DNA from: an uncultured Clostridia bacterium
Lineage (GTDB): Bacteria > Bacillota > Clostridia > Christensenellales > Aristaeellaceae
NCBI GenBank assembly: GCA_937934775.1
Contig: CALGYL010000180.1
Coordinates: 1 to 52,526, forward strand
Reading direction: 5' to 3'
DNA: 52,526 nt
Part shown: one piece after another, positions 2,186 to 14,718 of the stretch
Layout: each line of letters begins with the position of its first letter
Numbering within the stretch: position 1 is the first letter of the stretch
Made by a program: the position numbers and the translations under genes
Notes under the pieces: generated by a model
What the model was told of the DNA's origin: nothing
What the model saw: only the letters and a program-made list of their open reading frames with translations
The model's database searches: none

Positions 2186-3586
2186 TTAATCACCAAATGC
2201 GAGCGTCTTCACCACCACGGGGAGCACGCGCCCCTCCGCGAGCGGTTCGCCGAGATCCACCGTATCCCCATGGGTCAGCGTGATCCCGTCCACGCAGATC
2301 AGGGAGGCGTCCGTCCCCCAGCGGCGCATCAGCGCCTGCCCCAGCGCCTTGGCCATATCCTGCGACATAATCAGGATGCGCGGGGTGAAATCCCCCATGC
2401 CGCGCACGATTTCCCCGGCAATGGCCTCGATCTGCCCGTATGTAGGGCTGCGCAGGCCTTCGAATCCGATGGCGAACGGCGGCTCATACAGGGAATTCTG
2501 CTTCCGGATGCGATCGCCCAGGCCGGCGACATCCTCCGGGGTCTCAAGCCGCACCTTGGCGACCGGCAAGCCCTTGAGGGGAAAGCGCACGTTGGACAGA
2601 GAGATGGTGCTCCCGGTCACGGCCACGCTGTATGCTCCGGCGCCGATCACCGTGGCGTGCAGGGTTTCCAGCGCGCGCGCCACGCGCCCCCGCGAAAAAA
2701 AACGCGAAGCGGCCAGGCACTCGCCAAGCATCCGCCCGATATCGAAAAACAGCAAGTCCTCCGCAATCGTCCGGTACACGCAATCGGCCACGCCGCCGGA
2801 AAAGGTGAAAAAATCCGGAACAACGTGCTCCGGCAGGCCATGGCCCAGGACCAGCGCATGGTACAGCGGCGTTCTCGGCCGCAGGTTCACGGCCTCCTCC
2901 AGCACCTCGGCCATCCGGCGGGCGATGCGGCTGACCAACTCCTGCGGGACGAACGCGCCCGGCGCGAGCGGGACGCCCACATCCCGGGCGACCAGTATAA
3001 GGGAGGCGGTGAAAGAATGCACCGCTCCTGCCTCCGTAAAACGCAAAAGCCGTCCGCCTATGTTCAGGCAGCCGGTTTCCAGCGGTTCTCCCCGGTCAAA
3101 CAGGCACATGTTGGTCGTTCCGCCGCCGATGTCCAGGTTGAGTACGGTTTTCCCCCGCTCCCGGGACAGGGCCGCGGCGCCCGCACCCTTGCCCGCGAGC
3201 ACCCCTTCCAGCTCCGGTCCGGCGGTTGCCACCACGAAATCCCCGGCCAGCCCAGCCAGCGCCTGGGCCACTTCCCGCGCGTTCTTCTTGCGCGCGGTCT
3301 CGCCAGTGATGATCACGGCACCGCACCCGATATCGGCAGGCCGGATTCCGGCGCGTTCATAATCTTCCTCAATCAGGCGGGCGACCGCCGCGCCGTCGAT
3401 GGTATCGGGCGTCAAAAGCGGCGTAAGCCGAATCGGCGCGCGGTAGAGCACGCGCTTGTCTGTCAGTTCCACCCGGGGTACCGCGAACGAGGGGGACAGG
3501 TTCCGCAGCGTCATGCTGCTGAAAACGCACTGCAGCGTGGAGGTGCCGATGTCAATCCCCACGCTGGTCAAACGCTCCTGCCGCAC
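2186..3586 (-). CDS. eutA: ethanolamine ammonia-lyase reactivating factor
   Basis: 466-aa ORF with an N-terminal GIDIGTST and a later LDIGGGTTN, the actin/HSP70-like ATPase motifs typical of EutA. GTG start with GGTGAGGG upstream. Directly upstream of eutB. Confidence 0.9.
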   Translation of the reverse strand: MRQERLTSVGIDIGTSTLQCVFSSMTLRNLSPSFAVPRVELTDKRVLYRAPIRLTPLLTPDTIDGAAVARLIEEDYERAGIRPADIGCGAVIITGETARKKNAREVAQALAGLAGDFVVATAGPELEGVLAGKGAGAAALSRERGKTVLNLDIGGGTTNMCLFDRGEPLETGCLNIGGRLLRFTEAGAVHSFTASLILVARDVGVPLAPGAFVPQELVSRIARRMAEVLEEAVNLRPRTPLYHALVLGHGLPEHVVPDFFTFSGGVADCVYRTIAEDLLFFDIGRMLGECLAASRFFSRGRVARALETLHATVIGAGAYSVAVTGSTISLSNVRFPLKGLPVAKVRLETPEDVAGLGDRIRKQNSLYEPPFAIGFEGLRSPTYGQIEAIAGEIVRGMGDFTPRILIMSQDMAKALGQALMRRWGTDASLICVDGITLTHGDTVDLGEPLAEGRVLPVVVKTLAFGD

Positions 3587-3625
3587 CAGCCCTCACCACA
3601 TTTCCCATTTTTGTTATTGTACACC

Positions 3626-3655
3626 CTTTTTATTTCGGCTGTCAATCGACCGTGC
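3626..3655 (-). promoter_or_regulatory. candidate sigma-A promoter for eutABC
   Basis: On the minus strand: TTGACA, 18 nt, TACAAT, about 40 nt upstream of the eutA start. Confidence 0.35.
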
Positions 3656-3698
3656 TCCCAATTTGAAATATGCGGTTAACCATTTTTTCGCACACTCC

Positions 3699-3727
3699 TT
3701 GACAAGCACATCATCCGCGGATAATAT
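3699..3727 (+). promoter_or_regulatory. candidate sigma-A promoter for the ABC importer operon
   Basis: TTGACA (3699-3704), 17 nt, TAATAT (3722-3727). The RBS TAAGGAGGGG follows at 3769-3778 and the ATG at 3788. Confidence 0.4.
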
Positions 3728-3787
3728 ACAAATAGGCTATAGTGAATCCACATTTCCCCAGAAATAATAAGGAGGGGTCTACCTACT

Positions 3788-4882
3788 ATGAAGAGACTGG
3801 TAAGCGTCGTCCTGTGCATCATCCTTCTCATGTCCGCAGCCGTTGTCGCATCCGCCGAGGATCTGGCTGCCGCCAACGCCGACAAGGCCACCAAGGCCGC
3901 CACCATGTCATACGATGATCTGCTGGCCGCCGCCAAGGAAGAGGGTCAGGTCTTCAGCGTCGGTATGCCTCCCGAATGGGCCAACTGGAAAGACCTGTGG
4001 GCCAATTTGGAATCTCTGGGCATCAAGACCACCGACACCGACATGTCCTCCGCCGAGGAGCTTGCGCGCTTCGCCCTGCAGGACAAGGCGGATGCGGACA
4101 TCGGCGATATCGGCATCGCCATGACCAGCGTGGCCATGGATCAGGACCTGCTGCTGCCCTTCAAGACCTCGAAATGGGATTCCATCCCTGACTGGGCCAA
4201 GGATGCGGACGGCAAGTGGATCGAAGCCTACACCTGCACCACCGCCTTCATCACCGATCTTGAGAACGTGGACAAAGCCCCCACGTCTTGGAAAGAACTG
4301 CTGGAGGGCAACTACAAGGTCTGCATCGGCGACGTGGAGAAGGCCTCCCAGGCCTACAACGGCGTGCTTTCCTGCGCGCTGGCCCTCGGCGGCGACGAAA
4401 CCAACCTCCAGCCCGCGCTGGACGCGTTCGCCAAGCTGGCCAAGGACGGCCGTCTGAACACCTCCAACCCCTACGTGGCCAACCTGGAGAACGGCGAAAT
4501 CGAAGTTGCCATCCTGTGGGACTTCAACGCCCTGGGCTACCGCGACCAGATCCAGAAGGATCGCTTCGCCGTGACCATTCCCTCCGACGGCGCCGTGACC
4601 TCCGGCTACGCCAGCGTCATCAACAAGTACGCCAAGAACCCCTACGCCGCGATGCTCGCCCGTGAGATCATGCTCAGCGACGCCGGCCAGAACTTCCTGG
4701 CGCTGGGTTATGTGCACCCCATCCGCACGGACGCCGTGCTCACCGATGATGCCAAGGCCAAACTGCTGGACAACGCCCAGTACGCCAACGCCTATCAGAT
4801 CAAGGACCAGAATGCCTGGAAGGCCACGCTGGAAGAACTGCCCACCGTCTGGCAGGAGCAGGTCAGCGTAAACATGAACTAA
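3788..4882 (+). CDS. ABC transporter substrate-binding protein (family-1 SBP, PotD/PotF-like)
   Basis: 364-aa ORF with an N-terminal signal peptide (MKRLVSVVLCIILLMSAAVVASA). It is the first gene of an SBP-permease-permease-ATPase set and has a strong RBS. Confidence 0.85.
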   Translation: MKRLVSVVLCIILLMSAAVVASAEDLAAANADKATKAATMSYDDLLAAAKEEGQVFSVGMPPEWANWKDLWANLESLGIKTTDTDMSSAEELARFALQDKADADIGDIGIAMTSVAMDQDLLLPFKTSKWDSIPDWAKDADGKWIEAYTCTTAFITDLENVDKAPTSWKELLEGNYKVCIGDVEKASQAYNGVLSCALALGGDETNLQPALDAFAKLAKDGRLNTSNPYVANLENGEIEVAILWDFNALGYRDQIQKDRFAVTIPSDGAVTSGYASVINKYAKNPYAAMLAREIMLSDAGQNFLALGYVHPIRTDAVLTDDAKAKLLDNAQYANAYQIKDQNAWKATLEELPTVWQEQVSVNMN

Positions 4883-4903
4883 AGCGCAAAAGAATGCGGG
4901 AGC

Positions 4904-4927
4904 GGGCCATGCCTTTGGGCATGGCCC
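4904..4927 (+). terminator. perfect 10-bp hairpin between the SBP and permease genes (attenuator or mRNA stabiliser)
   Basis: GGGCCATGCC-TTTG-GGCATGGCCC followed by the pyrimidine-rich CTCCTCCTTCTTT. The position after the SBP gene is typical of differential expression within ABC operons. Confidence 0.5.
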
Positions 4928-4963
4928 CTCCTCCTTCTTTAGCATAGCTGGGAGGTTCTCCGT

Positions 4964-5827
4964 ATGGGAAGAAAACGGAGGCTGAATGGGTTCTACCTGA
5001 CCACGATGGGTGTTTTTTTGTTGCTGGTAGCGGCGTTCATGGCGATCCCGATGGTTTCGCTGATTACCACCTCGTTTTCCGCGCCCAAGGTGGGCGGCTT
5101 TACGCTGGACAACTTCATCAAGGTATTTACCAGCAAGCTATATCAGGTCAGCTTCTTCAACAGCATGGCGCTGTCCCTCCAATCCAGTCTGTACGGCATT
5201 TTGATCGCGCTGGTCTGTTCCTACGCGATCACGCGTTTTGCCAGTGAAAAAGTGCAGAACAACATGCTTGTGGTCATCAATATGACGTCCAACTTCGCGG
5301 GCATGCCGCTCGCTTTCGCGCTGACACTGATGTTGGGCAACACGGGTATGTTCATTATATTGCTCAGCCAGATGGGCATTGACCTGGGCAAATCCTTCAG
5401 CATATACTCGGTACAAGGCCTGGTCATCGCCTACACCTACTTTCAGGTGCCGCTGGGGATCATGCTTTTGTACCCCATCTATCGCGGCGTTCGGGAGGAC
5501 TGGAAGGAAGCCGCCTCCATTTTGGGCGCGTCGACTCCGCAGTTTTGGCTGCGCATCGGCATTCCGACGATCCTGCCCAGCGTTCTTTCAACGTTCACGC
5601 TGCTGTTTGCTAACGCCATGGGCGCGTATGCGACGGCGTATTATCTGGTCAGCTCCAGTTACAATCTGGTGACCATCCGCATCTCCGCGCTGATGAGCGG
5701 TGATATCCGCACGAAGCCGGAGTTGGGCAGCGCGCTTGCGGTTACGCTGGCGCTTGTTCTGATCGTCATCATGCTGATCAACGACTGGGCCAGTCGGCTC
5801 GCAGCGCGAAGGGGGATGAAATCATGA
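4964..5827 (+). CDS. ABC transporter permease (PotB-like)
   Basis: 287-aa multi-TM ORF with character like ABC binding-protein-dependent transport inner-membrane components. Its end overlaps the start of the next permease gene (5824-5827). Confidence 0.85.
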   Translation: MGRKRRLNGFYLTTMGVFLLLVAAFMAIPMVSLITTSFSAPKVGGFTLDNFIKVFTSKLYQVSFFNSMALSLQSSLYGILIALVCSYAITRFASEKVQNNMLVVINMTSNFAGMPLAFALTLMLGNTGMFIILLSQMGIDLGKSFSIYSVQGLVIAYTYFQVPLGIMLLYPIYRGVREDWKEAASILGASTPQFWLRIGIPTILPSVLSTFTLLFANAMGAYATAYYLVSSSYNLVTIRISALMSGDIRTKPELGSALAVTLALVLIVIMLINDWASRLAARRGMKS

Positions 5828-6625: not shown

Positions 6626-7633
6626 ATGAGCCAGTTCATTGAGATCAAGCATGTGGTGAAGCGCTTTGGCGCAAACACCGTGCTGCGTGATATTTCCCTC
6701 GGGGTGGACAAATCGGAGATGGTCACGCTGCTGGGGCCTTCCGGCTGCGGAAAATCAACCCTGCTGCGCGCCATCGCGGGTTTGAACGATGTGGACGAGG
6801 GACAAGTGTTCATCGACGGCCAGGATGTCACCCAGGTGGACGTCCGCAAACGCCACGTCGGCATGGTGTTTCAGAGCTATGCGCTGTTTCCCAACATGAC
6901 CGCCGTGCAGAATATTGCCTTTGGACTGACCATTGACAAGCGCCCCAAAGAAGAAATCGACGCGCGCGTACAGGAAATGATCGAACTCGTGGGCTTGGCC
7001 GGCAAGGAAAATCAACGCCCCACCCAGCTCTCCGGAGGCCAGCAGCAGCGCGTGGCGCTTGCCCGCGCGCTGGTGATGAAGCCGAAGGTTCTCCTGCTGG
7101 ACGAGCCGCTCTCCGCGCTGGATGCCCAGATCCGCCAAAACCTGCGCGTGCAGATACGGGACATTCAGCAGAAGATGCAGATGACCGCGATCTTCGTCAC
7201 CCACGATCAAGAAGAAGCCATGAGCATCTCCGACCGGGTGTTTGTCATGCACGACGGCGTCATCGCTCAGCAGGGCACGCCCGACCAGATTTATGCCAGC
7301 CCCAACAGCGAGTTCGTGGCCCACTTCATCGGGCATTACAACGTACTGAAGCCCGAGGCCGTTGCGAAAGTCTTCGGCATCGGCGCGCCCGCCTGCAAGG
7401 TGGCCGCGGTGCGGCCGGAGGCGATCTCGCTGAACGCCTCGTCCGATTCGCTCTCCTTCAAGGGCAGGATTACCCAGTCTTCCATGCTGGGCAGCATCAT
7501 CCGCTACCAGGTGGACTGCGACGGGCAGGCCATGTCTTTTGAGGTGGTCAACCAGAACGCCAAACCCCTCCGCGTCGGCGACACGGTGCCCTTCTACCTC
7601 AGCAGTAAGGATCTATTGCTGATTCAGAACTGA
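6626..7633 (+). CDS. ABC transporter ATP-binding protein (PotA-like, with C-terminal TOBE-like region)
   Basis: Walker [10 protein letters not shown], signature LSGGQQQR and Walker [10 protein letters not shown] prefer ATG 6626 (AGGAGGG RBS at 6613-6619) over the track start at 6605. Confidence 0.9.
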
Positions 7634-7760
7634 GGGACGGGGCAGACAGAGACCTAACGCGCGGCGTCTGCGCCGGTTAACCGGCCTGCAATTCGCAAAA
7701 CGGCCTTCGCCGGCTTCCCGCCCGCAGACAGAGCATCAGCAGAGTCCGTCCAGCTTTCTT

Positions 7761-7789
7761 CGCTTCCGGCGGTCTGTGCGCCGGAAGCG
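7761..7789. repeat. REP-like GC hairpin, copy 1 of 3
   Basis: CGCTTCCGGCG-GTCTGTG-CGCCGGAAGCG followed by AATTTTT. Nearly identical hairpins with similar flanks occur at 19338-19366 and 24166-24190. Confidence 0.7.
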
Positions 7790-7893
7790 AATTTTTGACC
7801 GTCAGCACGCATCCCGGCAGCGAGAACAGCATCATACATGTTGGGAATCGGCATTGATTATTGTTCCCATATGGTGACATGCGAGGTTTTTCA

Positions 7894-8331
7894 ATGTGCA
7901 ACGATCCGAATACCACCGAACTGTTCCAGCTTCTTGTAGAAGGCTCCAGTTTTGAAAAATCCGTTCGGGGACTGGGCGCCGCCATCTGCGACCCCTCTTT
8001 GACGGAACTGCTTCTGGCGCTGCAGCAGCGCAGCGGGCTGAGCATTTCGGACATCGCGAAGCGCACGCTCCTCAGCAAGTCCTATATTCACCAGTTGTTC
8101 AGCGGCGTCCGCAGCCCAAGCCGGAACGCGGTGCTCTGCGTGGCGCGCGTTTTGAAAGCCGACCTCCGCGAAACGCAGATCCTTTTAAAAGTTGCGCAGA
8201 AAGGCGATCTGTACCCCAGAATCCGGCGCGACGCGGCCATCATCTTCTCCATCGAGCGCGATTTCGACCTGGCGCAGCTATCGCGTCTCCTCAAAGATAT
8301 CGGGGAGACCCCGCTTTTACCTGAAACCTGA
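7894..8331 (+). CDS. XRE-family helix-turn-helix protein
   Basis: The ORF is open from 7861. The HTH-like segment is LSISDIAKRTLLSKSYIHQLFSGVRSPSRNAVLCVARVL. The start is uncertain (7861, 7879 or 7894); 7894 has the best-spaced weak RBS. Confidence 0.7.
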   Translation: MCNDPNTTELFQLLVEGSSFEKSVRGLGAAICDPSLTELLLALQQRSGLSISDIAKRTLLSKSYIHQLFSGVRSPSRNAVLCVARVLKADLRETQILLKVAQKGDLYPRIRRDAAIIFSIERDFDLAQLSRLLKDIGETPLLPET

Positions 8332-8387
8332 TTTCCTCACGCTTGTGGAACGAGCGCGCATCGGGCGCGCGGAAAGGACGGGGCAGC

Positions 8388-10295
8388 ATGGAAGAACTGC
8401 ATGGCCCAGGCGCGGCGGCCATCGCCGGGTGGGAAATCCCGGGGTTTCCGCCGGAGGACTTGAACATGATTTCCTGCCTGAAAGAGCGTGAAAACCGGCA
8501 GGTGTTCCTGCTCCGAAACCGGCAGGACGACGCGCTGTACGTGCTGAAGACAGCGCCCGCGGAAGACATGCCCCGGCTTTTGCAGGAGTACGCGCTGATG
8601 CAAGCCCTGCATGATGTCGCCTTCCCCCACCCCGTCGCCTGCTTTCAGCGCGGCGATCGCGCCTGCCTGTTGCGGGAGTACGTGGCCGGACGGACGCTGG
8701 CCGAACAGGTACAGTCGGAAGGCCCTTTCCCGCCGCGCCGCGCACTGGAAATCGCCAGCCGCGCGTGCGGAATCGTAGGCATTCTTCAATCCCTCACGCC
8801 GCCGGTTGTCCACCGCGACATCAAACCGCAGAATCTCATCCTGGACGAGAAAGGCGGCCTGCACCTGATCGACCTGGACACCGCCCAGGCCTCCAGGCCT
8901 GAGAAAGCCTTCGATACGATGGTGGTGGGCACCGAGCGCACCGCCGCCCCCGAGCAGTTTGGCTTCCGCCGGTGCGACGAGCGCACGGACGTGTATGCCA
9001 TCGGCATCCTGATGGTGTTCCTTCTGACCGGAGGGTATGACGAGGCGGCGCTGGACAGCGTGCGGCTGCCTCCTTCCCTGAAGCGCATCCTCCGGAAGTG
9101 TCTGGCGTTTGATCCCAGCCGCCGCCCCGCCTCGGCCAAACGCCTTGCGGCCATGCTCACCGCCTGGAAGCGGCGCTGGTCTACCCGGATCAAGAGGGCG
9201 GCAGCCATCACCGCGGCGCTTGCGGCCGTACTGATCTTCACCCAGTACGGCAGGCCGCTGGTCCGTTATGCCACGAGCGCCTATACGCGGGCCGTCGAGC
9301 CGGAATACACCTTCGCCTCGCCGCTGATTGAGAAGGCGGTACGGCTGCAGTTGGGGCGGGAAGGCGGTAAAATCACCTGGCGGGATCTTCAAAGCGTATC
9401 CGAGCTGTATCTCTGCGCCGAGACCCCTTACAAAAGCTGGGGGGATCTCGAATCCAACGGCGGCAACAAGCAGATGCTGAGCGGAACACCCCACGATGAG
9501 TACGCCCGGCTGGAAGACCTTTCGGACCTGAAAAACATGCCCAACCTGCAAAAACTCGGGCTGAACAGGCTGGGTCTCAAAGACCTCACGGCGTTCAGCG
9601 GGCTTGCGCTGACACATTTGGGCGTCGGCAGCAATTCCATTTCAGACCTCACCCCGATTCTGGACATGCAGACGCTGAGGGCGCTCGATATTTCAGACAA
9701 CCCCCTTTACGGCCTGAACGGGCTGGAGCGGCTGACCCAGCTTCGCACGCTGAACATCACCGCCCTTCCGGTGCGAAGCCTTGCGCCGCTTGCCCAGCTG
9801 CACCTGGTCGGACTCGATATGTACGATGTGTTCCAGTCGCTCGACTGCTCCGCGCTTGCGCAGATGGAGGGGCTGGAATACTTCAACACCCGCTACCTGT
9901 CCCCGGAAGGATACGCCGCGCTCTGCCATCTGACGACGCCCAAGTATGTGAACCTCCTCTATTCCGGGATCGAGCGCATCGACCCCCTTCTGGGAATGAA
10001 GCAGATTAGTCTCCTGACGCTTCGCGGCAACCCAATCAAGGACCTTAAGCCCATCGCCAGTTTTTTCAGGTTGCGGCAGTTGGACCTTTCAGAGTGCGAA
10101 CTGACCAGCATCGAGCCTCTTCGCGGCAACCGGAGCGTCGAAACGCTGAACATTGCGCACAACCCGCTGACCAGCCTTTCCGCGCTGGCAAGCATGCCCC
10201 GGCTGAAGACGGTCGGCCTGTCCGAAGACCAGCAGCCCCTTCTGGACGCGCTGCCCGGCGAGCTTCCCTTTTCCGTCGTCTACATAGGCTGGTAG
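8388..10295 (+). CDS. membrane Ser/Thr protein kinase with C-terminal leucine-rich-repeat ectodomain (paralog 1)
   Basis: Hanks-type motifs are present: VLK, HRDIKPQN, AAPEQ. One hydrophobic helix (AAAITAALAAVLIFTQY) follows, then about 330 aa of 22-residue LxxLxLxxNxIxDLxPL repeats. Start chosen as MEEL (8388) by alignment with the paralog. Confidence 0.85.
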   Translation: MEELHGPGAAAIAGWEIPGFPPEDLNMISCLKERENRQVFLLRNRQDDALYVLKTAPAEDMPRLLQEYALMQALHDVAFPHPVACFQRGDRACLLREYVAGRTLAEQVQSEGPFPPRRALEIASRACGIVGILQSLTPPVVHRDIKPQNLILDEKGGLHLIDLDTAQASRPEKAFDTMVVGTERTAAPEQFGFRRCDERTDVYAIGILMVFLLTGGYDEAALDSVRLPPSLKRILRKCLAFDPSRRPASAKRLAAMLTAWKRRWSTRIKRAAAITAALAAVLIFTQYGRPLVRYATSAYTRAVEPEYTFASPLIEKAVRLQLGREGGKITWRDLQSVSELYLCAETPYKSWGDLESNGGNKQMLSGTPHDEYARLEDLSDLKNMPNLQKLGLNRLGLKDLTAFSGLALTHLGVGSNSISDLTPILDMQTLRALDISDNPLYGLNGLERLTQLRTLNITALPVRSLAPLAQLHLVGLDMYDVFQSLDCSALAQMEGLEYFNTRYLSPEGYAALCHLTTPKYVNLLYSGIERIDPLLGMKQISLLTLRGNPIKDLKPIASFFRLRQLDLSECELTSIEPLRGNRSVETLNIAHNPLTSLSALASMPRLKTVGLSEDQQPLLDALPGELPFSVVYIGW

Positions 10296-10368
10296 GGCGC
10301 GCCGGGAGGAAGATGCGTGAACGCATCACCGCCCACTCGCGCCCCGCCGTTTCAGTGTTGGAGGGAAA

Positions 10369-12282
10369 ATGAACGAATCGGCCAACTTTTTACGCCAATA
10401 TGATCCGCTTTGCGGCGACGCGGTTATCCCCGCCTCGGTGCTTGCGTGGTATGAGGTGATCTCCTGCCTCAAATACGGCCCAAAGCGGCAGGTGTACCTG
10501 ATGGGTGACAAGGCAAGCGGCGATCGGTTCGTGCTCAAGCTGGCGCCTGCCGATCAGATGGATGTATTTCAGCGCGAGTACGGCACGCTTAGACGGCTGC
10601 ATAGCCGCGCGTTTCCCCACCCGGTCGCCTGCTTTGAATCCGACGGATACGCCTGTCTGATCCGGGAATACATTCCGGGGCGTTCACTGGCAGAGCACGT
10701 GGAGGACGACGGCCCTTTCCCAGAAGCCAAGGCGGTCGAAATCGGGCGGATGGTCTGCGAGATCGTCCTGCAACTGCACCGGGGTACGCCGCCGGTTGTC
10801 CATCGGGACATCAAGCCGCAGAACCTGATCCTTTCGCCCGACGGCGCCGTGCGCCTGGTGGATCTGGACGCTGCCGAGACTCTTTCGGCCGAGAAAACCG
10901 AAGATACCCTGGTCATGGGCACCGCCGCCACCGCCGCGCCGGAGCAGTTCGGCTACCGCCGCTGCGACGAGCGAACGGATGTGTACGCCATCGGCATTCT
11001 GATCCTGTACCTGCTGACCGGCGGGTATCATCGGGACGCGCTCAAGGGGCAGAAGCTGTCGCCTTCTCTCAAGCGCGTCATACGGCGCTTAATCGCCTTT
11101 GATCCGGACCACCGCCCAGCGTCGGCTGAAAAGCTCATGGCGCTTCTGGATGCCTGGAAACGGCGCCGGTTCACGCGAATCCGGGCGCTGGTTTGCGTCG
11201 CGATGGCGCTCGCCGGCGTCCTGATGCTGCTGGGAAGTCATGAAAACCCGGCGCAGTACGTCCCCAGCGCCGGTTCGAGCGCCTTGGGCACGCCCTATGC
11301 GTTTGCGTCGCCGCTGATTGAGCGAGCGGTCCGGCTGCAACTGGGCAGAAGCCAGGGTGTCGTCACCCGGCGGGATCTGAACAGGGTCTCCGCGCTGTAC
11401 CTTTGCGCGGAGACCCCGTACAGGAACTGGAGCGATCTGACTTCCACCGGCTCAGGCATCCAGATTCTGAACGGCGAGGTCCACGGCGAATATGCCCGGA
11501 TCGTAGATCTGTCCGACCTGAACAACATGCCCAATCTGCGCAGACTCGCGCTGAGCCGGCTGAATGCCGGGAATCTCAAGGCGCTTCAGGGGCTGAACCT
11601 GACCTATTTGAGGCTGAGCGGCAACCGGCTGACAGACCTAACGCCAATTTCCGGAATGACGAAGCTTGAGGCACTTGACATCTCCGATAACCCCATCGCC
11701 GACCTGAGCGGGCTGGAAAAACTCCCGCATCTGAGCTACCTGAACATCACCGCCGTCCCGGCGAAAAGCCTCGCCCCCCTCGCCGGAACGAGCGTCAGCG
11801 TGCTGGACATGTTCGATGTGAACGAGGCCACCGACTGCGCGGCGCTCGCCGGAATGGACAATCTGACCCGCTTTGCAGCGCGCAATCTCCCGCGGGCGGG
11901 CGTCAGCGCGCTGTCCGGGGCGACGTCAATCAAGTACGCGGTGCTGCTTTCCTCCGGCGCGGACAGCCTTAAGCCCTTCTCCGGGATGAAAAACCTGCTG
12001 GAACTGACGCTGAGCGGCAGTTCCTTAAAGAGCCTTCAGGGCGTTTCCTCCCTCGCGTTTCTCAGGATGCTGGACGTTTCGGCGTGCTCGCTGACGGACA
12101 TCGGAGAACTGCGCGGCAATAAAAGCATACAAAAACTGAACATCGCCAACAATCCGCTGACCGATCTGACCGTGCTCCGGTCCATGCCAAACCTGAAAGA
12201 AGTGGTCTTATCCAAAGACCAGAGTACGCTTGCGCAATCCCTGGGCGGTTCGATTCAGTTTCCCATCACGTACGCCGATTGA
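10369..12282 (+). CDS. membrane Ser/Thr protein kinase with C-terminal leucine-rich-repeat ectodomain (paralog 2)
   Basis: Same architecture as 8388-10295 and collinear with it by eye over the full length (HRDIKPQNLIL, TAAPEQFGYRRCDERTDVYAIGIL, FASPLIERAVRLQLGR, LRR units). GGAGGG RBS. Confidence 0.85.
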   Translation: MNESANFLRQYDPLCGDAVIPASVLAWYEVISCLKYGPKRQVYLMGDKASGDRFVLKLAPADQMDVFQREYGTLRRLHSRAFPHPVACFESDGYACLIREYIPGRSLAEHVEDDGPFPEAKAVEIGRMVCEIVLQLHRGTPPVVHRDIKPQNLILSPDGAVRLVDLDAAETLSAEKTEDTLVMGTAATAAPEQFGYRRCDERTDVYAIGILILYLLTGGYHRDALKGQKLSPSLKRVIRRLIAFDPDHRPASAEKLMALLDAWKRRRFTRIRALVCVAMALAGVLMLLGSHENPAQYVPSAGSSALGTPYAFASPLIERAVRLQLGRSQGVVTRRDLNRVSALYLCAETPYRNWSDLTSTGSGIQILNGEVHGEYARIVDLSDLNNMPNLRRLALSRLNAGNLKALQGLNLTYLRLSGNRLTDLTPISGMTKLEALDISDNPIADLSGLEKLPHLSYLNITAVPAKSLAPLAGTSVSVLDMFDVNEATDCAALAGMDNLTRFAARNLPRAGVSALSGATSIKYAVLLSSGADSLKPFSGMKNLLELTLSGSSLKSLQGVSSLAFLRMLDVSACSLTDIGELRGNKSIQKLNIANNPLTDLTVLRSMPNLKEVVLSKDQSTLAQSLGGSIQFPITYAD

Positions 12283-12294
12283 CGTGCCCGGGAC

Positions 12295-12330
12295 CTCCGG
12301 GTGAATGCACCGGAGCCCTGCTCCCTTTTT
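12295..12330 (+). terminator. possible terminator after the kinase pair
   Basis: CTCCGGgTG-AATG-CACCGGAG stem with a T5 run 11 nt downstream. The geometry is non-canonical. Confidence 0.3.
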
Positions 12331-12414: not shown

Positions 12415-14718
12415 TCAGTCCTCCTCCAGCGCGCGGTTCATCCGCTCCAGCAGCTCGGACAGCATTTTCTGGGTCAGGCGGCCGCCCGACAGCATGTCCA
12501 GGTGCTGGGAAAAGCCCCAGAACGCCTTGGAGAGCTCCGCCTCCAGCCGCAGAGTCACCTGGTCGCGGGTCAGAAGGCCATGCGCCACGAGAAAATCAAA
12601 GTACGCCCCGGACGAGCGGCGGTCCCGGAAAATGTCCGTATAGTGGCTGTCCGCCGTCAGTTTTTGGACGGGTTCGGGCGTGGGGCGCGGCCGCACCACC
12701 GCCTCCAGCGGCAGGCACCGGGAGGAGCCGCCCGCTTCGAGCGCATAGTCCCCGCCAAAAACGCGCCAGTCGGTCAGCCGGTCGTCCCAGCAGGCAAAGT
12801 CCCGCTCCTCCAGGGCCATTGTCACGATGCGCCGCTCACCCGGCTCCAGGAACACCCTTTCGAAGGCCTTCAGTTCCCGCTCAGGCCGGAACAGCGGGCC
12901 CTTGGGCGGCCGGACGTACAACTGCACAACCTCGCCGCCTGCCCGGTCACCCACGTTGGTCAGCGTGACGCTCACGGTATAGCCGCCGTCCCGCGCCTCC
13001 GCCCGGAGGGAATCGTAACGGAAGCGCGTATAGGACAGGCCATGGCCGAAGGGAAAGAGCGGTTCGATGCGCCGGGCGTCGTACCAGCGGTAGCCGACAA
13101 AGACGCCCTCCCGGTAAACGCCGACATCCTGCTCATGCGGAAAATCCAGGTAAGCCGGACAATCCGAAAGGCGTTTGGGGATTGTGACCGCCAGCTTGCC
13201 GCCGGGATTGGCATCGCCCACAAGGAGATCCGCCATCGCCTGCCCCGCGCCCTCGCCCGCATACCACATGTCCAGTATGGCGTTCGCCCCGTCCGCCCAG
13301 GGCATCTCCACCGCGTCCCCGTTCATCACCACGACCACCGTGTTGGGCTGCACCGCGCACACCGCTTCGATCAGCCGCCGATGGCCGCTCTCCAGCGCCA
13401 TGTCCGGCCGGTCATACTCGTCGCTCTCGACGGGCAGGCGGCTGGCCACCATGAGAACCGCCGTCTCCGCGCGCTCCGCCAGGCGTACGGCCTCGCCAAG
13501 CAGCGCGTCGGTGGTGGAATAATCCGCCCGGTAGCCAGGCGCGTACGCAATGTCCGCCAGCGGCAGCGCGGCCTTGAGCGCCTCGATCGGGCTGTCAACC
13601 TGCCTGGCGTTCACCACCGCGCAGCCTGTGCCTTGGAACACGGGCTTCACCGCCGCCTCGCCCAAGACCGCCAGCTTCAGCTTCCGGTACTTTTCCAGCG
13701 GCAGCGCGCCATCGTTTTTCAGCAGCACGCCGCACGCCGCGGCGGCCTTTCGCGCCAGCAGGTGGTGCGCCTCCCAGTCCACCCGGGGCGCCTCGCCGCT
13801 TTGCGCGTACGCAAACACGGCGCGCAGAATCCGCTCGCAGCGGACATCCAGCTGCGCCTCCGTGAGTCGTCCATCCTCAAGCGCCGCTCGCACCTGCTCC
13901 AGGTACTGGCCGCTCCTGGGCATCTGCAGGTCCAGCCCGGCGGCCGCGGCCGCGGCGGAGTCCTTCACGCCGCCCCAGTCGGAGAGCACCATGCCCTGAA
14001 AGCCCCACTCGTCCCGGAGCACGTTTGTCAGCAGCCACTTGTTCTCGCAGCACGGCCACCCGTTGACGGCGGGATAGCTGCCCATGACCGCCGCGGGCTT
14101 CGCCTTTTTGATCGCGCGCTCAAAGCCCCTGAGATAGATTTCCCGGAGAGCGCGCGCCTCCACCCGCAAATCCAGCGCGGTGCGCCGGGTGTCGGAGTTG
14201 TTGCAGACGAAATGCTTGACCGTGGCGCCCACACCCTCGCCTTGGACGCCCTCCACCATGCCGGCGGCCATATCCCCGGCGAGAACGGGGTCTTCGGAAT
14301 AGTATTCAAAGTTCCGGGCCGTCAGCGGGTGGCGGCGGATGTTCATGCCCGGTCCCAGCAGAAGTCCAATGCCCAGCGCCTTGCACTCCCGCGCCACGGC
14401 AGCCCCCACCGCCCGCGCCAGCGCCGGGTCCCAACTTGAGGCCAGCGCGGCTCCGCTGGGAAAGCAGGTGGCGGGGTAGGTGTTGGCCAGCGCCTCTTCG
14501 GAATCAAAGCCCGATCCGGCGAAGGCATCGTAGAGGCTGCCGCCTTCGGCCGCTTGATCGCTCCCCCGTTGGAAGCGCACGCCGTTGGTGCCGTCGCTCA
14601 TCGTCAGGCTGGGGATGCCGAGCGCCGGGTTATCCTGCGTCTGCCAACTGTTCTTTCCGGTGCAAAGCCGGATCTTCTGTTCGACCGTCATCTTCCGGAT
14701 GATCCCTGCAATGTCCAT
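12415..14718 (-). CDS. bglX: glycoside hydrolase family 3 beta-glucosidase
   Basis: 767-aa ORF with N-terminal EQKIRLCTGKNSWQT…LTMSDGTNGVR and a SDWGG-type motif (VLSDWGGV), both typical of GH3. Confidence 0.9.
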   Translation of the reverse strand: MDIAGIIRKMTVEQKIRLCTGKNSWQTQDNPALGIPSLTMSDGTNGVRFQRGSDQAAEGGSLYDAFAGSGFDSEEALANTYPATCFPSGAALASSWDPALARAVGAAVARECKALGIGLLLGPGMNIRRHPLTARNFEYYSEDPVLAGDMAAGMVEGVQGEGVGATVKHFVCNNSDTRRTALDLRVEARALREIYLRGFERAIKKAKPAAVMGSYPAVNGWPCCENKWLLTNVLRDEWGFQGMVLSDWGGVKDSAAAAAAGLDLQMPRSGQYLEQVRAALEDGRLTEAQLDVRCERILRAVFAYAQSGEAPRVDWEAHHLLARKAAAACGVLLKNDGALPLEKYRKLKLAVLGEAAVKPVFQGTGCAVVNARQVDSPIEALKAALPLADIAYAPGYRADYSTTDALLGEAVRLAERAETAVLMVASRLPVESDEYDRPDMALESGHRRLIEAVCAVQPNTVVVVMNGDAVEMPWADGANAILDMWYAGEGAGQAMADLLVGDANPGGKLAVTIPKRLSDCPAYLDFPHEQDVGVYREGVFVGYRWYDARRIEPLFPFGHGLSYTRFRYDSLRAEARDGGYTVSVTLTNVGDRAGGEVVQLYVRPPKGPLFRPERELKAFERVFLEPGERRIVTMALEERDFACWDDRLTDWRVFGGDYALEAGGSSRCLPLEAVVRPRPTPEPVQKLTADSHYTDIFRDRRSSGAYFDFLVAHGLLTRDQVTLRLEAELSKAFWGFSQHLDMLSGGRLTQKMLSELLERMNRALEED

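Follow-up and report, generated by a model that had tools for sequence, protein, structure and literature searches.

A putative receptor-kinase module with leucine-rich repeat sensors is genetically linked to an XRE-type regulator in gut Clostridia

In a 52,526-nucleotide contig from an uncultured Clostridia bacterium (GenBank assembly GCA_937934775.1, contig CALGYL010000180.1; the whole stretch is hereafter called the window), three consecutive open reading frames (ORFs) on the + strand fill positions 7861-12282 and encode, in this order, a small helix-turn-helix (HTH) protein and two large proteins, designated kinase A and kinase B. Our analysis indicates that such receptor Ser/Thr kinases with a leucine-rich repeat (LRR) sensor are genetically locked to a previously undescribed XRE-type family, a combination that is widespread in gut Clostridia. 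With a probability of roughly 0.6, the receptor kinases and the cognate HTH transcription factor would constitute a one-step transmembrane (TM) Ser/Thr signalling pair; kinase activity, phosphotransfer to the HTH protein, and the direction of regulation are what we infer from the sequence. An earlier reading of the same DNA (the original prediction) had described an HTH gene followed by two tandem kinase-TM-LRR genes on the same strand, and all three ORFs were indeed present. The short gap that it gave between the HTH gene and kinase A was also found, although this gap comprises 56 nt (8332-8387, between the HTH stop codon and the ATG of kinase A) rather than 57 nt.

One genome per GTDB species was scanned with the HTH motif alone, which gave 158 relatives, and the best 80 loci were analysed, the presence of a kinase being scored with hidden Markov models (HMMs) built from the family. 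A family kinase was adjacent to the HTH gene at 77 of the 80 loci, so that gene linkage lends strong support to the proposed role of the HTH protein as the cognate partner of the kinases. The HTH gene preceded the kinase gene on the same strand at 59 loci, with a 4-nt stop/start overlap in many of these pairs, while the kinase came first at 5 loci and the two genes were divergent at 11 and convergent at 2. An LRR ectodomain was found on 60 of the 77 linked kinases; the others carried a TM helix with an unannotated ectodomain or a Zn-ribbon, or consisted of a soluble kinase domain of ~235 aa. Because the pairing outlasts the change of sensor, the invariant core is the HTH protein and the kinase domain, with an exchangeable sensor. 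The kinase family comprised 797 homologues or clusters with the kinase-TM-LRR architecture (90% identity), compared with 812 HTH clusters. Moreover, the pairwise identities of the HTH, kinase, and LRR parts co-varied (r ~0.86), which is consistent with inheritance as a unit and is not proof of physical interaction.

The 80 loci were almost all from Clostridia, namely Oscillospiraceae, Lachnospiraceae, and related groups. Among the cultured strains that carry the module are Blautia schinkii DSM 10518, Eisenbergiella tayi DSM 26961, Pseudoflavonifractor capillosus An827, Fusicatenibacter faecihominis, and Lutispora saccharofermentans. Flanking genes were not conserved around the module in the related loci, and no conserved third gene was found when one was sought there, the candidates being only shadow ORFs on the antisense strand, ABC genes of a generic kind, and neighbours specific to a subgroup. 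Several individual loci showed peculiar arrangements. In four loci (L031, L035, L039, and L041, ~2360-5430), a soluble kinase of ~235 aa is divergent from the HTH gene and is accompanied by a second HTH-family gene, with an intervening protein of ~435 aa containing a Zn-ribbon and a beta-helix domain. The convergent kinase and HTH genes occur at L062 (3083-5449) and L087 (4887-7213), the gene ends overlapping by 4 nt in L087; the binning of L062 as Muribaculaceae (Bacteroidota) suggests bin contamination or horizontal transfer. One Clostridial genome (L005, 6001-13899) carries a longer Ser/Thr signalling cluster comprising an LRR kinase, an HTH gene, a second kinase of 845 aa, an FHA protein, a PP2C, a trypsin-FHA protein, and a second PP2C. 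HTH-family genes were also seen on two human-faecal scaffolds labelled 'UNVERIFIED Bacteriophage sp.' (L092, 2241-3550, MT837913.1; L093, MT838682.1), one of which carries a divergent short kinase as well; their viral origin is unconfirmed, and the phage and plasmid collections gave no association of the module with a verified phage or a mobilisable plasmid.

The HTH protein gave Pfam matches to HTH_31 (9.6e-9, 35.9 bits; cut-off 27) and HTH_3 (1.5e-5, 25.4 bits; cut-off 23). It consists of an N-terminal tail containing Thr7, an XRE HTH at approximately aa 36-100, and a two-helix C-terminal extension carrying LYPRIRRDAAIIF. The members of its family are ~141-152 aa long and mostly labelled hypothetical in the sources. 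The 812 clusters mentioned above were counted in a word-indexed database, and in an exhaustive search run on the representatives of 50%-identity clusters, 316 were matched at E<=1e-30, a number that rose to 2014 at E<=1e-10. The hallmarks of the family are SKSYxYQxFSGxRxPxR, in the region of the recognition helix, and LYPRIRRDAAIIF; furthermore, Thr7 was invariant in all 59 aligned HTH sequences amid an otherwise variable N-terminus. Judged by these features, the HTH protein belongs to a distinct, unannotated family. Some members of 270-324 aa (P0243-P0257) contained two matched stretches and are apparently tandem-fused double copies.

An alignment-based AlphaFold2 model of the HTH protein showed nine helices with a pLDDT of 83.5, the first 30 residues, including Thr7, being of low confidence. 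In Foldseek, the core of the model was superimposed on DdrO, CapH, SinR, C.AhdI, HipB, and ClgR at 1.3-2.1 A over ~65 residues. Only this generic XRE core was matched; no full-length analogue was obtained (TMq <= 0.43), and the same was true of the C-terminal two-helix extension. A PDB profile match of this extension to designed PPR repeats was rejected as a compositional, helical-hairpin artefact. From the model, the HTH protein is a predicted XRE-type DNA-binding regulator with a five-helix lambda-repressor-like domain.

The N-terminal domains of both large proteins scored as Hanks-type Ser/Thr kinases, in agreement with the original prediction. Pfam Pkinase (PF00069) was matched above its cut-off of 31.7 bits by kinase A (80.7 bits, 1.5e-22) and kinase B (93.5 bits, 1.9e-26), and the closest PDB sequences to the kinase domain were S. 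aureus PknB (4eqm; 5.4e-19), StkP (7.6e-18), and M. tuberculosis PknB (3.6e-16). On the family HMMs, kinase A scored 356.8 bits (kinN) and 392.9 bits (lrrC). In kinase B, the catalytic set comprises K57, E70, H145-R146-D147, K149, N152, D165-L166-D167 at the DFG position, and A190-P191-E192. In an alignment of 121 kinase sequences, the beta3 Lys, the alphaC Glu, HRDxKxxN, the metal-binding Asp, and APE were conserved, these residues being kept at 60-90% or more, and the activation-segment threonines of kinase B (D-T180, G-T185, and T188) were conserved as well. Some members, such as P0036 and P0053, have CRD in place of HRD. On the basis of this residue pattern, the kinases are probably catalytically active though atypical. 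NCBIfam gave only partial and far sub-threshold matches, PknB-type on the kinase part and internalin on the LRR part; as far as these models indicate, no curated family covers the kinase A and B proteins.

Each kinase domain is followed by a single predicted TM helix. The kinase A helix occupies the family-wide TM position behind a shared WKRRW..R motif, and a stretch rich in R/K followed by a TM helix was found in ~118 of 120 homologues. The kinase B helix has six K/R within the preceding 20 residues and none after it. Since there is a single TM helix and no N-terminal signal peptide, and since the kinase requires ATP, the LRR domain should lie outside. The topology with a cytoplasmic kinase and an extracellular LRR domain is therefore strongly predicted, and the corresponding claim made earlier is borne out by the Pfam and PDB matches, the positive-inside rule, and the homologues. 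As for the coordinates then given for the two helices, those for kinase B (11179-11235) were exact, while the kinase A helix was located at 9189-9245 instead of 9198-9250.

Internalin-type LRRs of 22 residues had been proposed for the C-terminal domains, and an ungapped register of 11 such repeats was indeed found in both proteins, the repeat cited as an example, LEALDISDNPIADLSGLEKLPH, corresponding to aa 433-454 of kinase B. Pfam LRR_4 (3.8e-18 for kinase A and 8.9e-23 for kinase B) and LRR_8 (1.2e-9 and 3e-12) were matched above the cut-off, and the best PDB sequence match of the ectodomain was Internalin A (2.3e-31). The repeats are preceded by a cap motif (Table 1), which is the best-conserved segment of the ectodomain across the family. 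A comparison of the concave LRR face between the paralogues had been proposed as a check; diversifying change was not found there, as the concave positions are conserved more than the convex ones between kinase A and kinase B (52% versus 35% identical). The family-wide entropy was 2.82 bits at concave, 2.69 bits at convex, and 1.84 bits at scaffold positions. Taken from these alignments, LRR variability gives no sign of an arms race nor of one universal ligand.

Kinase A and kinase B are collinear; their kinase domains are 57% identical and their ectodomains 52%. These values agree with the tandem duplication of the kinase genes assumed in the original prediction, and they indicate that the duplication is real but old. 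Only the closest relatives (L001, L008, L009, and L088) retain both copies as orthologous pairs, and a single kinase is present in more distant relatives.

A distant relative of the module was found in Listeria by a tblastn search with the HTH protein against phage and plasmid collections, the records concerned being chromosome fragments. In L. monocytogenes NZ_LR134399.1 (L090, 3752-5456), a gene for a 151-aa hypothetical protein is divergent from that for a 380-aa Ser/Thr kinase. The 151-aa protein scored 121.9 bits with the HTH HMM, and the N-terminal Thr, YGYQIFSGVRRPSRD, and RRDAIIIF are preserved in it; the kinase scored 202.6 bits with the kinN HMM and has a multi-TM C-terminus without LRRs. 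Its length, annotation, and neighbours make it very probable that this kinase is Lmo0618, which has been described as a 380-aa putative kinase (PMC4379056) and whose deletion mutant showed 5-10 fold less replication in Caco-2 cells (PMC3091722). The Listeria pair thus resembles the module in its kinase subfamily and HTH family and is the only relative with any phenotype, but differs in the 380-aa length, the multi-TM C-terminus, the lack of LRRs, and the divergent gene order.

Based on these findings, the region would be a self-contained signalling module made up of an XRE-type DNA-binding protein and two paralogous single-pass receptor kinases, whose LRR solenoids would stand on the outer side of the membrane, within the wall zone of a monoderm Clostridium. 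Binding of a ligand to the LRR ectodomain would alter the oligomerisation or the activation of the kinase, which would autophosphorylate at the conserved activation-segment threonines in the motif D-T-x3-G-T-x2-T-A-x-P-E. The kinase would then phosphorylate the cognate HTH protein, with Thr7, which is invariant and lies in the flexible N-terminal tail, as the best candidate site; the HTH protein would in turn bind DNA differently, and transcription would be altered. Functionally, such a pathway would correspond to a two-component system based on Ser/Thr phosphorylation.

Several points weigh against this scheme. The linkage by itself would fit an HTH protein that is a mere operon regulator just as well as one that is a putative kinase substrate, and the invariant Thr7 could instead be a structural helix N-cap. 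In the kinase domain, the Gly-rich loop GxGxxG is unrecognisable, a conserved S-C-L-K (S32-C33-L34-K35 in kinase B) being found instead, and the Pfam Pkinase alignment starts at profile position 13-14, past this loop. DFG is also replaced by DLD or DLG across the kinase family, and the two deviations together make catalytic competence uncertain. The TM helix of kinase A is Ala-rich and weakly hydrophobic (Kyte-Doolittle 1.44), the sole full-length kinase model (AlphaFold2, kinase B, single-sequence) was too poor to use (pLDDT 42), and the module has no dedicated phosphatase. Furthermore, since the concave face of the LRRs has no special family-wide conservation, nothing there points to a ligand.

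In a different explanation, the kinases are genuine receptors that act on other substrates, like the pleiotropic PASTA kinases, and the HTH protein is an (auto)regulator of the operon only. The HTH gene lies upstream in the same operon, as is the case for many autoregulators, a palindrome stands ahead of its start codon, and Hanks kinases typically have multiple substrates. However, we consider this explanation unlikely, as the pairing persists in divergent, convergent, and reversed order and even with the soluble ~235-aa kinase, the sizes of the HTH and kinase families match, and a simple repressor would hardly account for two kinase-independent hallmarks of the HTH family, the invariant Thr7 and the LYPRIRRDAAIIF motif. 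The degeneration of the Gly-rich loop throughout the family, the change of DFG to DLD/DLG, and the occurrence of CRD for HRD in some members would also fit pseudokinase-like domains, which would bind or sequester the HTH protein at the membrane under the control of a ligand in the style of an anti-sigma factor; membrane pseudokinases are known in bacteria (PMC12599244). Such a function seems quite improbable, because the conservation of the beta3 Lys, alphaC Glu, catalytic Asp, Asn, metal-binding Asp, and APE at 60-90% or more is a pattern expected only under selection for catalysis.

A toxin-antitoxin (TA)-like or phage-defence module of the HipB-HipA style, in which an XRE antitoxin or regulator precedes a kinase toxin, was also considered. 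An upstream XRE HTH gene with overlapping genes is likewise seen in hipBA, the genomic context of the module is variable, the PADLOC kinase models PD-T4-6 and mad6 matched the kinase domain at 1e-27 to 1e-35, and HTH homologues occur on the two unverified faecal virome scaffolds. Nevertheless, the PADLOC and NCBIfam matches concern only the generic kinase domain and are far below the cut-off (MAD6, 75 bits versus 460), the fold is that of Hanks kinases and not of HipA, and known TA toxins do not combine a TM helix with a large LRR sensor outside the cell. With no match on verified phages or mobilisable plasmids and no recurrent neighbouring defence genes, this explanation appears highly improbable.

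Among known systems, the PASTA kinases of Gram-positive bacteria (PknB of M. tuberculosis, PrkC of B. subtilis, StkP of S. pneumoniae, and Stk1/PknB of S. aureus) are built like the module kinases: a cytoplasmic Hanks kinase domain at the N-terminus is joined by one TM helix to extracellular sensor repeats at the C-terminus. The PASTA kinases differ in their PASTA repeats and in their PP2C phosphatase partner in a cell-division cluster, whereas the module has LRRs, an HTH gene partner, and a degenerate Gly-rich loop; Pfam gave no PASTA match, and NCBIfam PknB_PASTA_kin (NF033483) matched the kinase part only, with 86-98 bits compared to 450. With the plant LRR receptor-like kinases (LRR-RLKs) such as FLS2 and BRI1, the module shares the extracellular LRRs, the single TM helix, the cytoplasmic Ser/Thr kinase, and the tandem paralogues. 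The domain logic of these plant proteins, which had been recognised in the original prediction, therefore holds, but the orientation is reversed: the plant order is signal peptide-LRR-TM-kinase with 24-residue LRRs, and that of the module is kinase-TM-LRR with 22-residue repeats of the bacterial type. In addition, the best kinase matches of the module are bacterial and PknB-like, unlike plant LRR-RLKs. From these comparisons, the likeness to plants is a convergent architecture and not membership.

The class 1 internalins of Listeria (InlA, InlB, and InlH) have the same 22-residue LRRs, and partial NCBIfam internalin matches were obtained with the module at 60-75 bits compared to cut-offs of 1050-1600. 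Unlike internalins, the module ectodomain has no signal peptide, inter-repeat Ig-like domain, or LPXTG/GW anchor and is tethered to the kinase by a TM helix. No Roc or COR match, as would characterise Roco/LRRK-like kinases, was found in the module, the PDB matches to the Chlorobium Roco protein being confined to the LRR region; as regards HipBA, the module kinases match Pkinase and not the HipA families. Kinases with a dedicated regulator are represented by PknH-EmbR and PknK-VirS in M. tuberculosis and AfsK-AfsR in Streptomyces, and in PknS-EcfK of Xanthomonas, a TM Hanks kinase is reportedly encoded beside the regulator that it phosphorylates. The module resembles these pairs in that a TM Hanks kinase gene adjoins a regulator gene, although phosphotransfer is only proposed for the module. 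Moreover, the regulator here is a small XRE-type HTH protein combined with an LRR-sensor kinase, whereas the known pairs use SARP/FHA, AraC, or ECF sigma regulators.

The original prediction had also stated that no characterised bacterial Ser/Thr kinase with an LRR ectodomain was known, and the open-access literature did not contradict this: no characterised kinase-TM-LRR protein or HTH partner was found there, an absence that is not conclusive. The sole mention found was in a 2005 catalogue, which lists one LRR-containing kinase in P. aeruginosa (PMC1262709). The atlas preprint of bacterial Ser/Thr kinases (bSTKs) and a pseudokinase review (PMC12599244) are silent on LRR sensors as well as on an HTH partner. 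As to the concern that the architecture might be a common and already characterised family, it proved to be common (~800 clusters), and no characterisation was found.

The features of the module and its boundaries are listed in Table 1. The maximal ORF of the HTH gene is 7861-8331, and its likely start is the ATG at 7894, which has GAGG 7 nt upstream and is backed by the 145-aa length of the three closest orthologues; the ribosome-binding site (RBS) and this start also align with the orthologous locus L088. The maximal ORF of kinase A is 8343-10295, from the TTG at 8343, and the likely start is the ATG at 8388, as in the orthologue P0003. The strong terminator at 7759-7791 forms the 5' boundary of the module, the upstream ABC ATPase gene ending at 7633, and the sole terminator candidate between the module genes is a weak 5-bp hairpin at 8301-8313, within the 3' end of the HTH gene. 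The palindrome at 7862-7879 is a speculative operator of the HTH gene, and it is not kept at the orthologous locus L088. No sigma-70-like promoter was predicted for the module. Because the upstream regions of the closest orthologous loci gave no alignment, no conserved operator or promoter is definable. An Rfam search gave no match anywhere in the window. A 426-aa ORF antisense to kinase A (8337-9617, - strand) was rejected as a gene, since such antisense ORFs cluster across 53 related loci as shadows of the conserved kinase gene in G+C-rich DNA.

Table 1 Positions of the module genes, their domains, and the boundary elements in the window.
Feature	Position	Strand	Description and basis
Intrinsic terminator of the upstream ABC-transporter operon	7759..7791	+	13-bp stem with 9 G-C pairs, then TTTTT
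Candidate operator, 18-bp imperfect palindrome TGTTCCCATATGGTGACA	7862..7879	.	Inverted repeat directly upstream of the HTH RBS
HTH gene	7894..8331	+	145 aa, XRE-type HTH; Pfam, RBS, orthologue lengths
Kinase A gene	8388..10295	+	635 aa; kinase domain, TM helix, LRR ectodomain
Kinase A catalytic domain, ~aa 25-259	8460..9164	+	Pfam Pkinase match; alignment to kinase B
Kinase A predicted TM helix, aa 268-286, IKRAAAITAALAAVLIFTQ	9189..9245	+	Hydropathy 1.44; WKRRWSTR just before
Kinase A, eleven 22-residue LRRs, aa 386-627	9543..10268	+	Ungapped register; LRR_4, LRR_8
Kinase B gene	10369..12282	+	637 aa; kinase domain, TM helix, LRR ectodomain; GGAGG RBS
Kinase B catalytic domain, ~aa 28-262	10450..11154	+	121-sequence family alignment; PDB matches
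Kinase B predicted TM helix, aa 271-289, IRALVCVAMALAGVLMLLG	11179..11235	+	Kyte-Doolittle 2.33
Kinase B juxtamembrane linker and ectodomain N-terminal cap	11236..11532	+	Motif F.SPLIE.AVR..L......I...DL..V..L
Kinase B, eleven 22-residue internalin-type LRRs, aa 389-630	11533..12258	+	Ungapped register; Internalin A match
Weak terminator-like hairpin 3' of kinase B, 3' boundary of the module	12312..12324	+	5-bp stem, T-rich tail

Downstream of the module, a GH3 glycosidase gene (12415-14718, - strand) is convergent with kinase B, and a sugar ABC system is also located there. At the left end of the window, EutB, the large subunit of ethanolamine ammonia-lyase (8e-202), is encoded at 818-2182 on the - strand and is unrelated to the module.

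Large secreted or surface protein genes adjoined the module in 10 related loci examined. A giant (>1400 aa) secreted protein rich in Glu, Thr, and Ser, with a signal peptide, is encoded beside the module in 8 of the 80 loci, its gene being upstream and divergent in L021, L026, L033, L050, L078, and L083 and downstream in L055 and L058; Pfam gave no match in the two giant proteins scanned (L026 and L033). In two close relatives, a giant Big_2 surface protein is the neighbour (L001, 9261-13908; L088, 1-5186). Such neighbours may be regulated targets of the module. In a wider and only tentative extension of the signalling scheme, which we would rate below an even chance, the module represents a widespread Ser/Thr counterpart of two-component systems in gut Clostridia and some Bacilli, with a receptor kinase bearing a swappable, mostly LRR, sensor and an XRE regulator switched at its N-terminal Thr. 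In the window, the two LRR kinases would converge on one regulator, as a heteromeric receptor and co-receptor or as two inputs; their ligands could be peptides or come from the envelope or the host, and large secreted surface proteins could be under their control.

Most of what is known about bacterial Hanks kinases concerns pleiotropic enzymes, for which few signals and few dedicated outputs have been defined. A kinase family tied genetically to a single small transcription factor and equipped with an LRR sensor of the protein- or peptide-binding kind offers a simple and testable input-output pathway in abundant gut commensals (Lachnospiraceae and Oscillospiraceae). The module is present in cultured strains, and its distant Listeria relative already has an infection phenotype. 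If the proposed pathway is true, it would represent a new class of surface-sensing system in gut bacteria and a striking convergence with the plant LRR receptor kinases.

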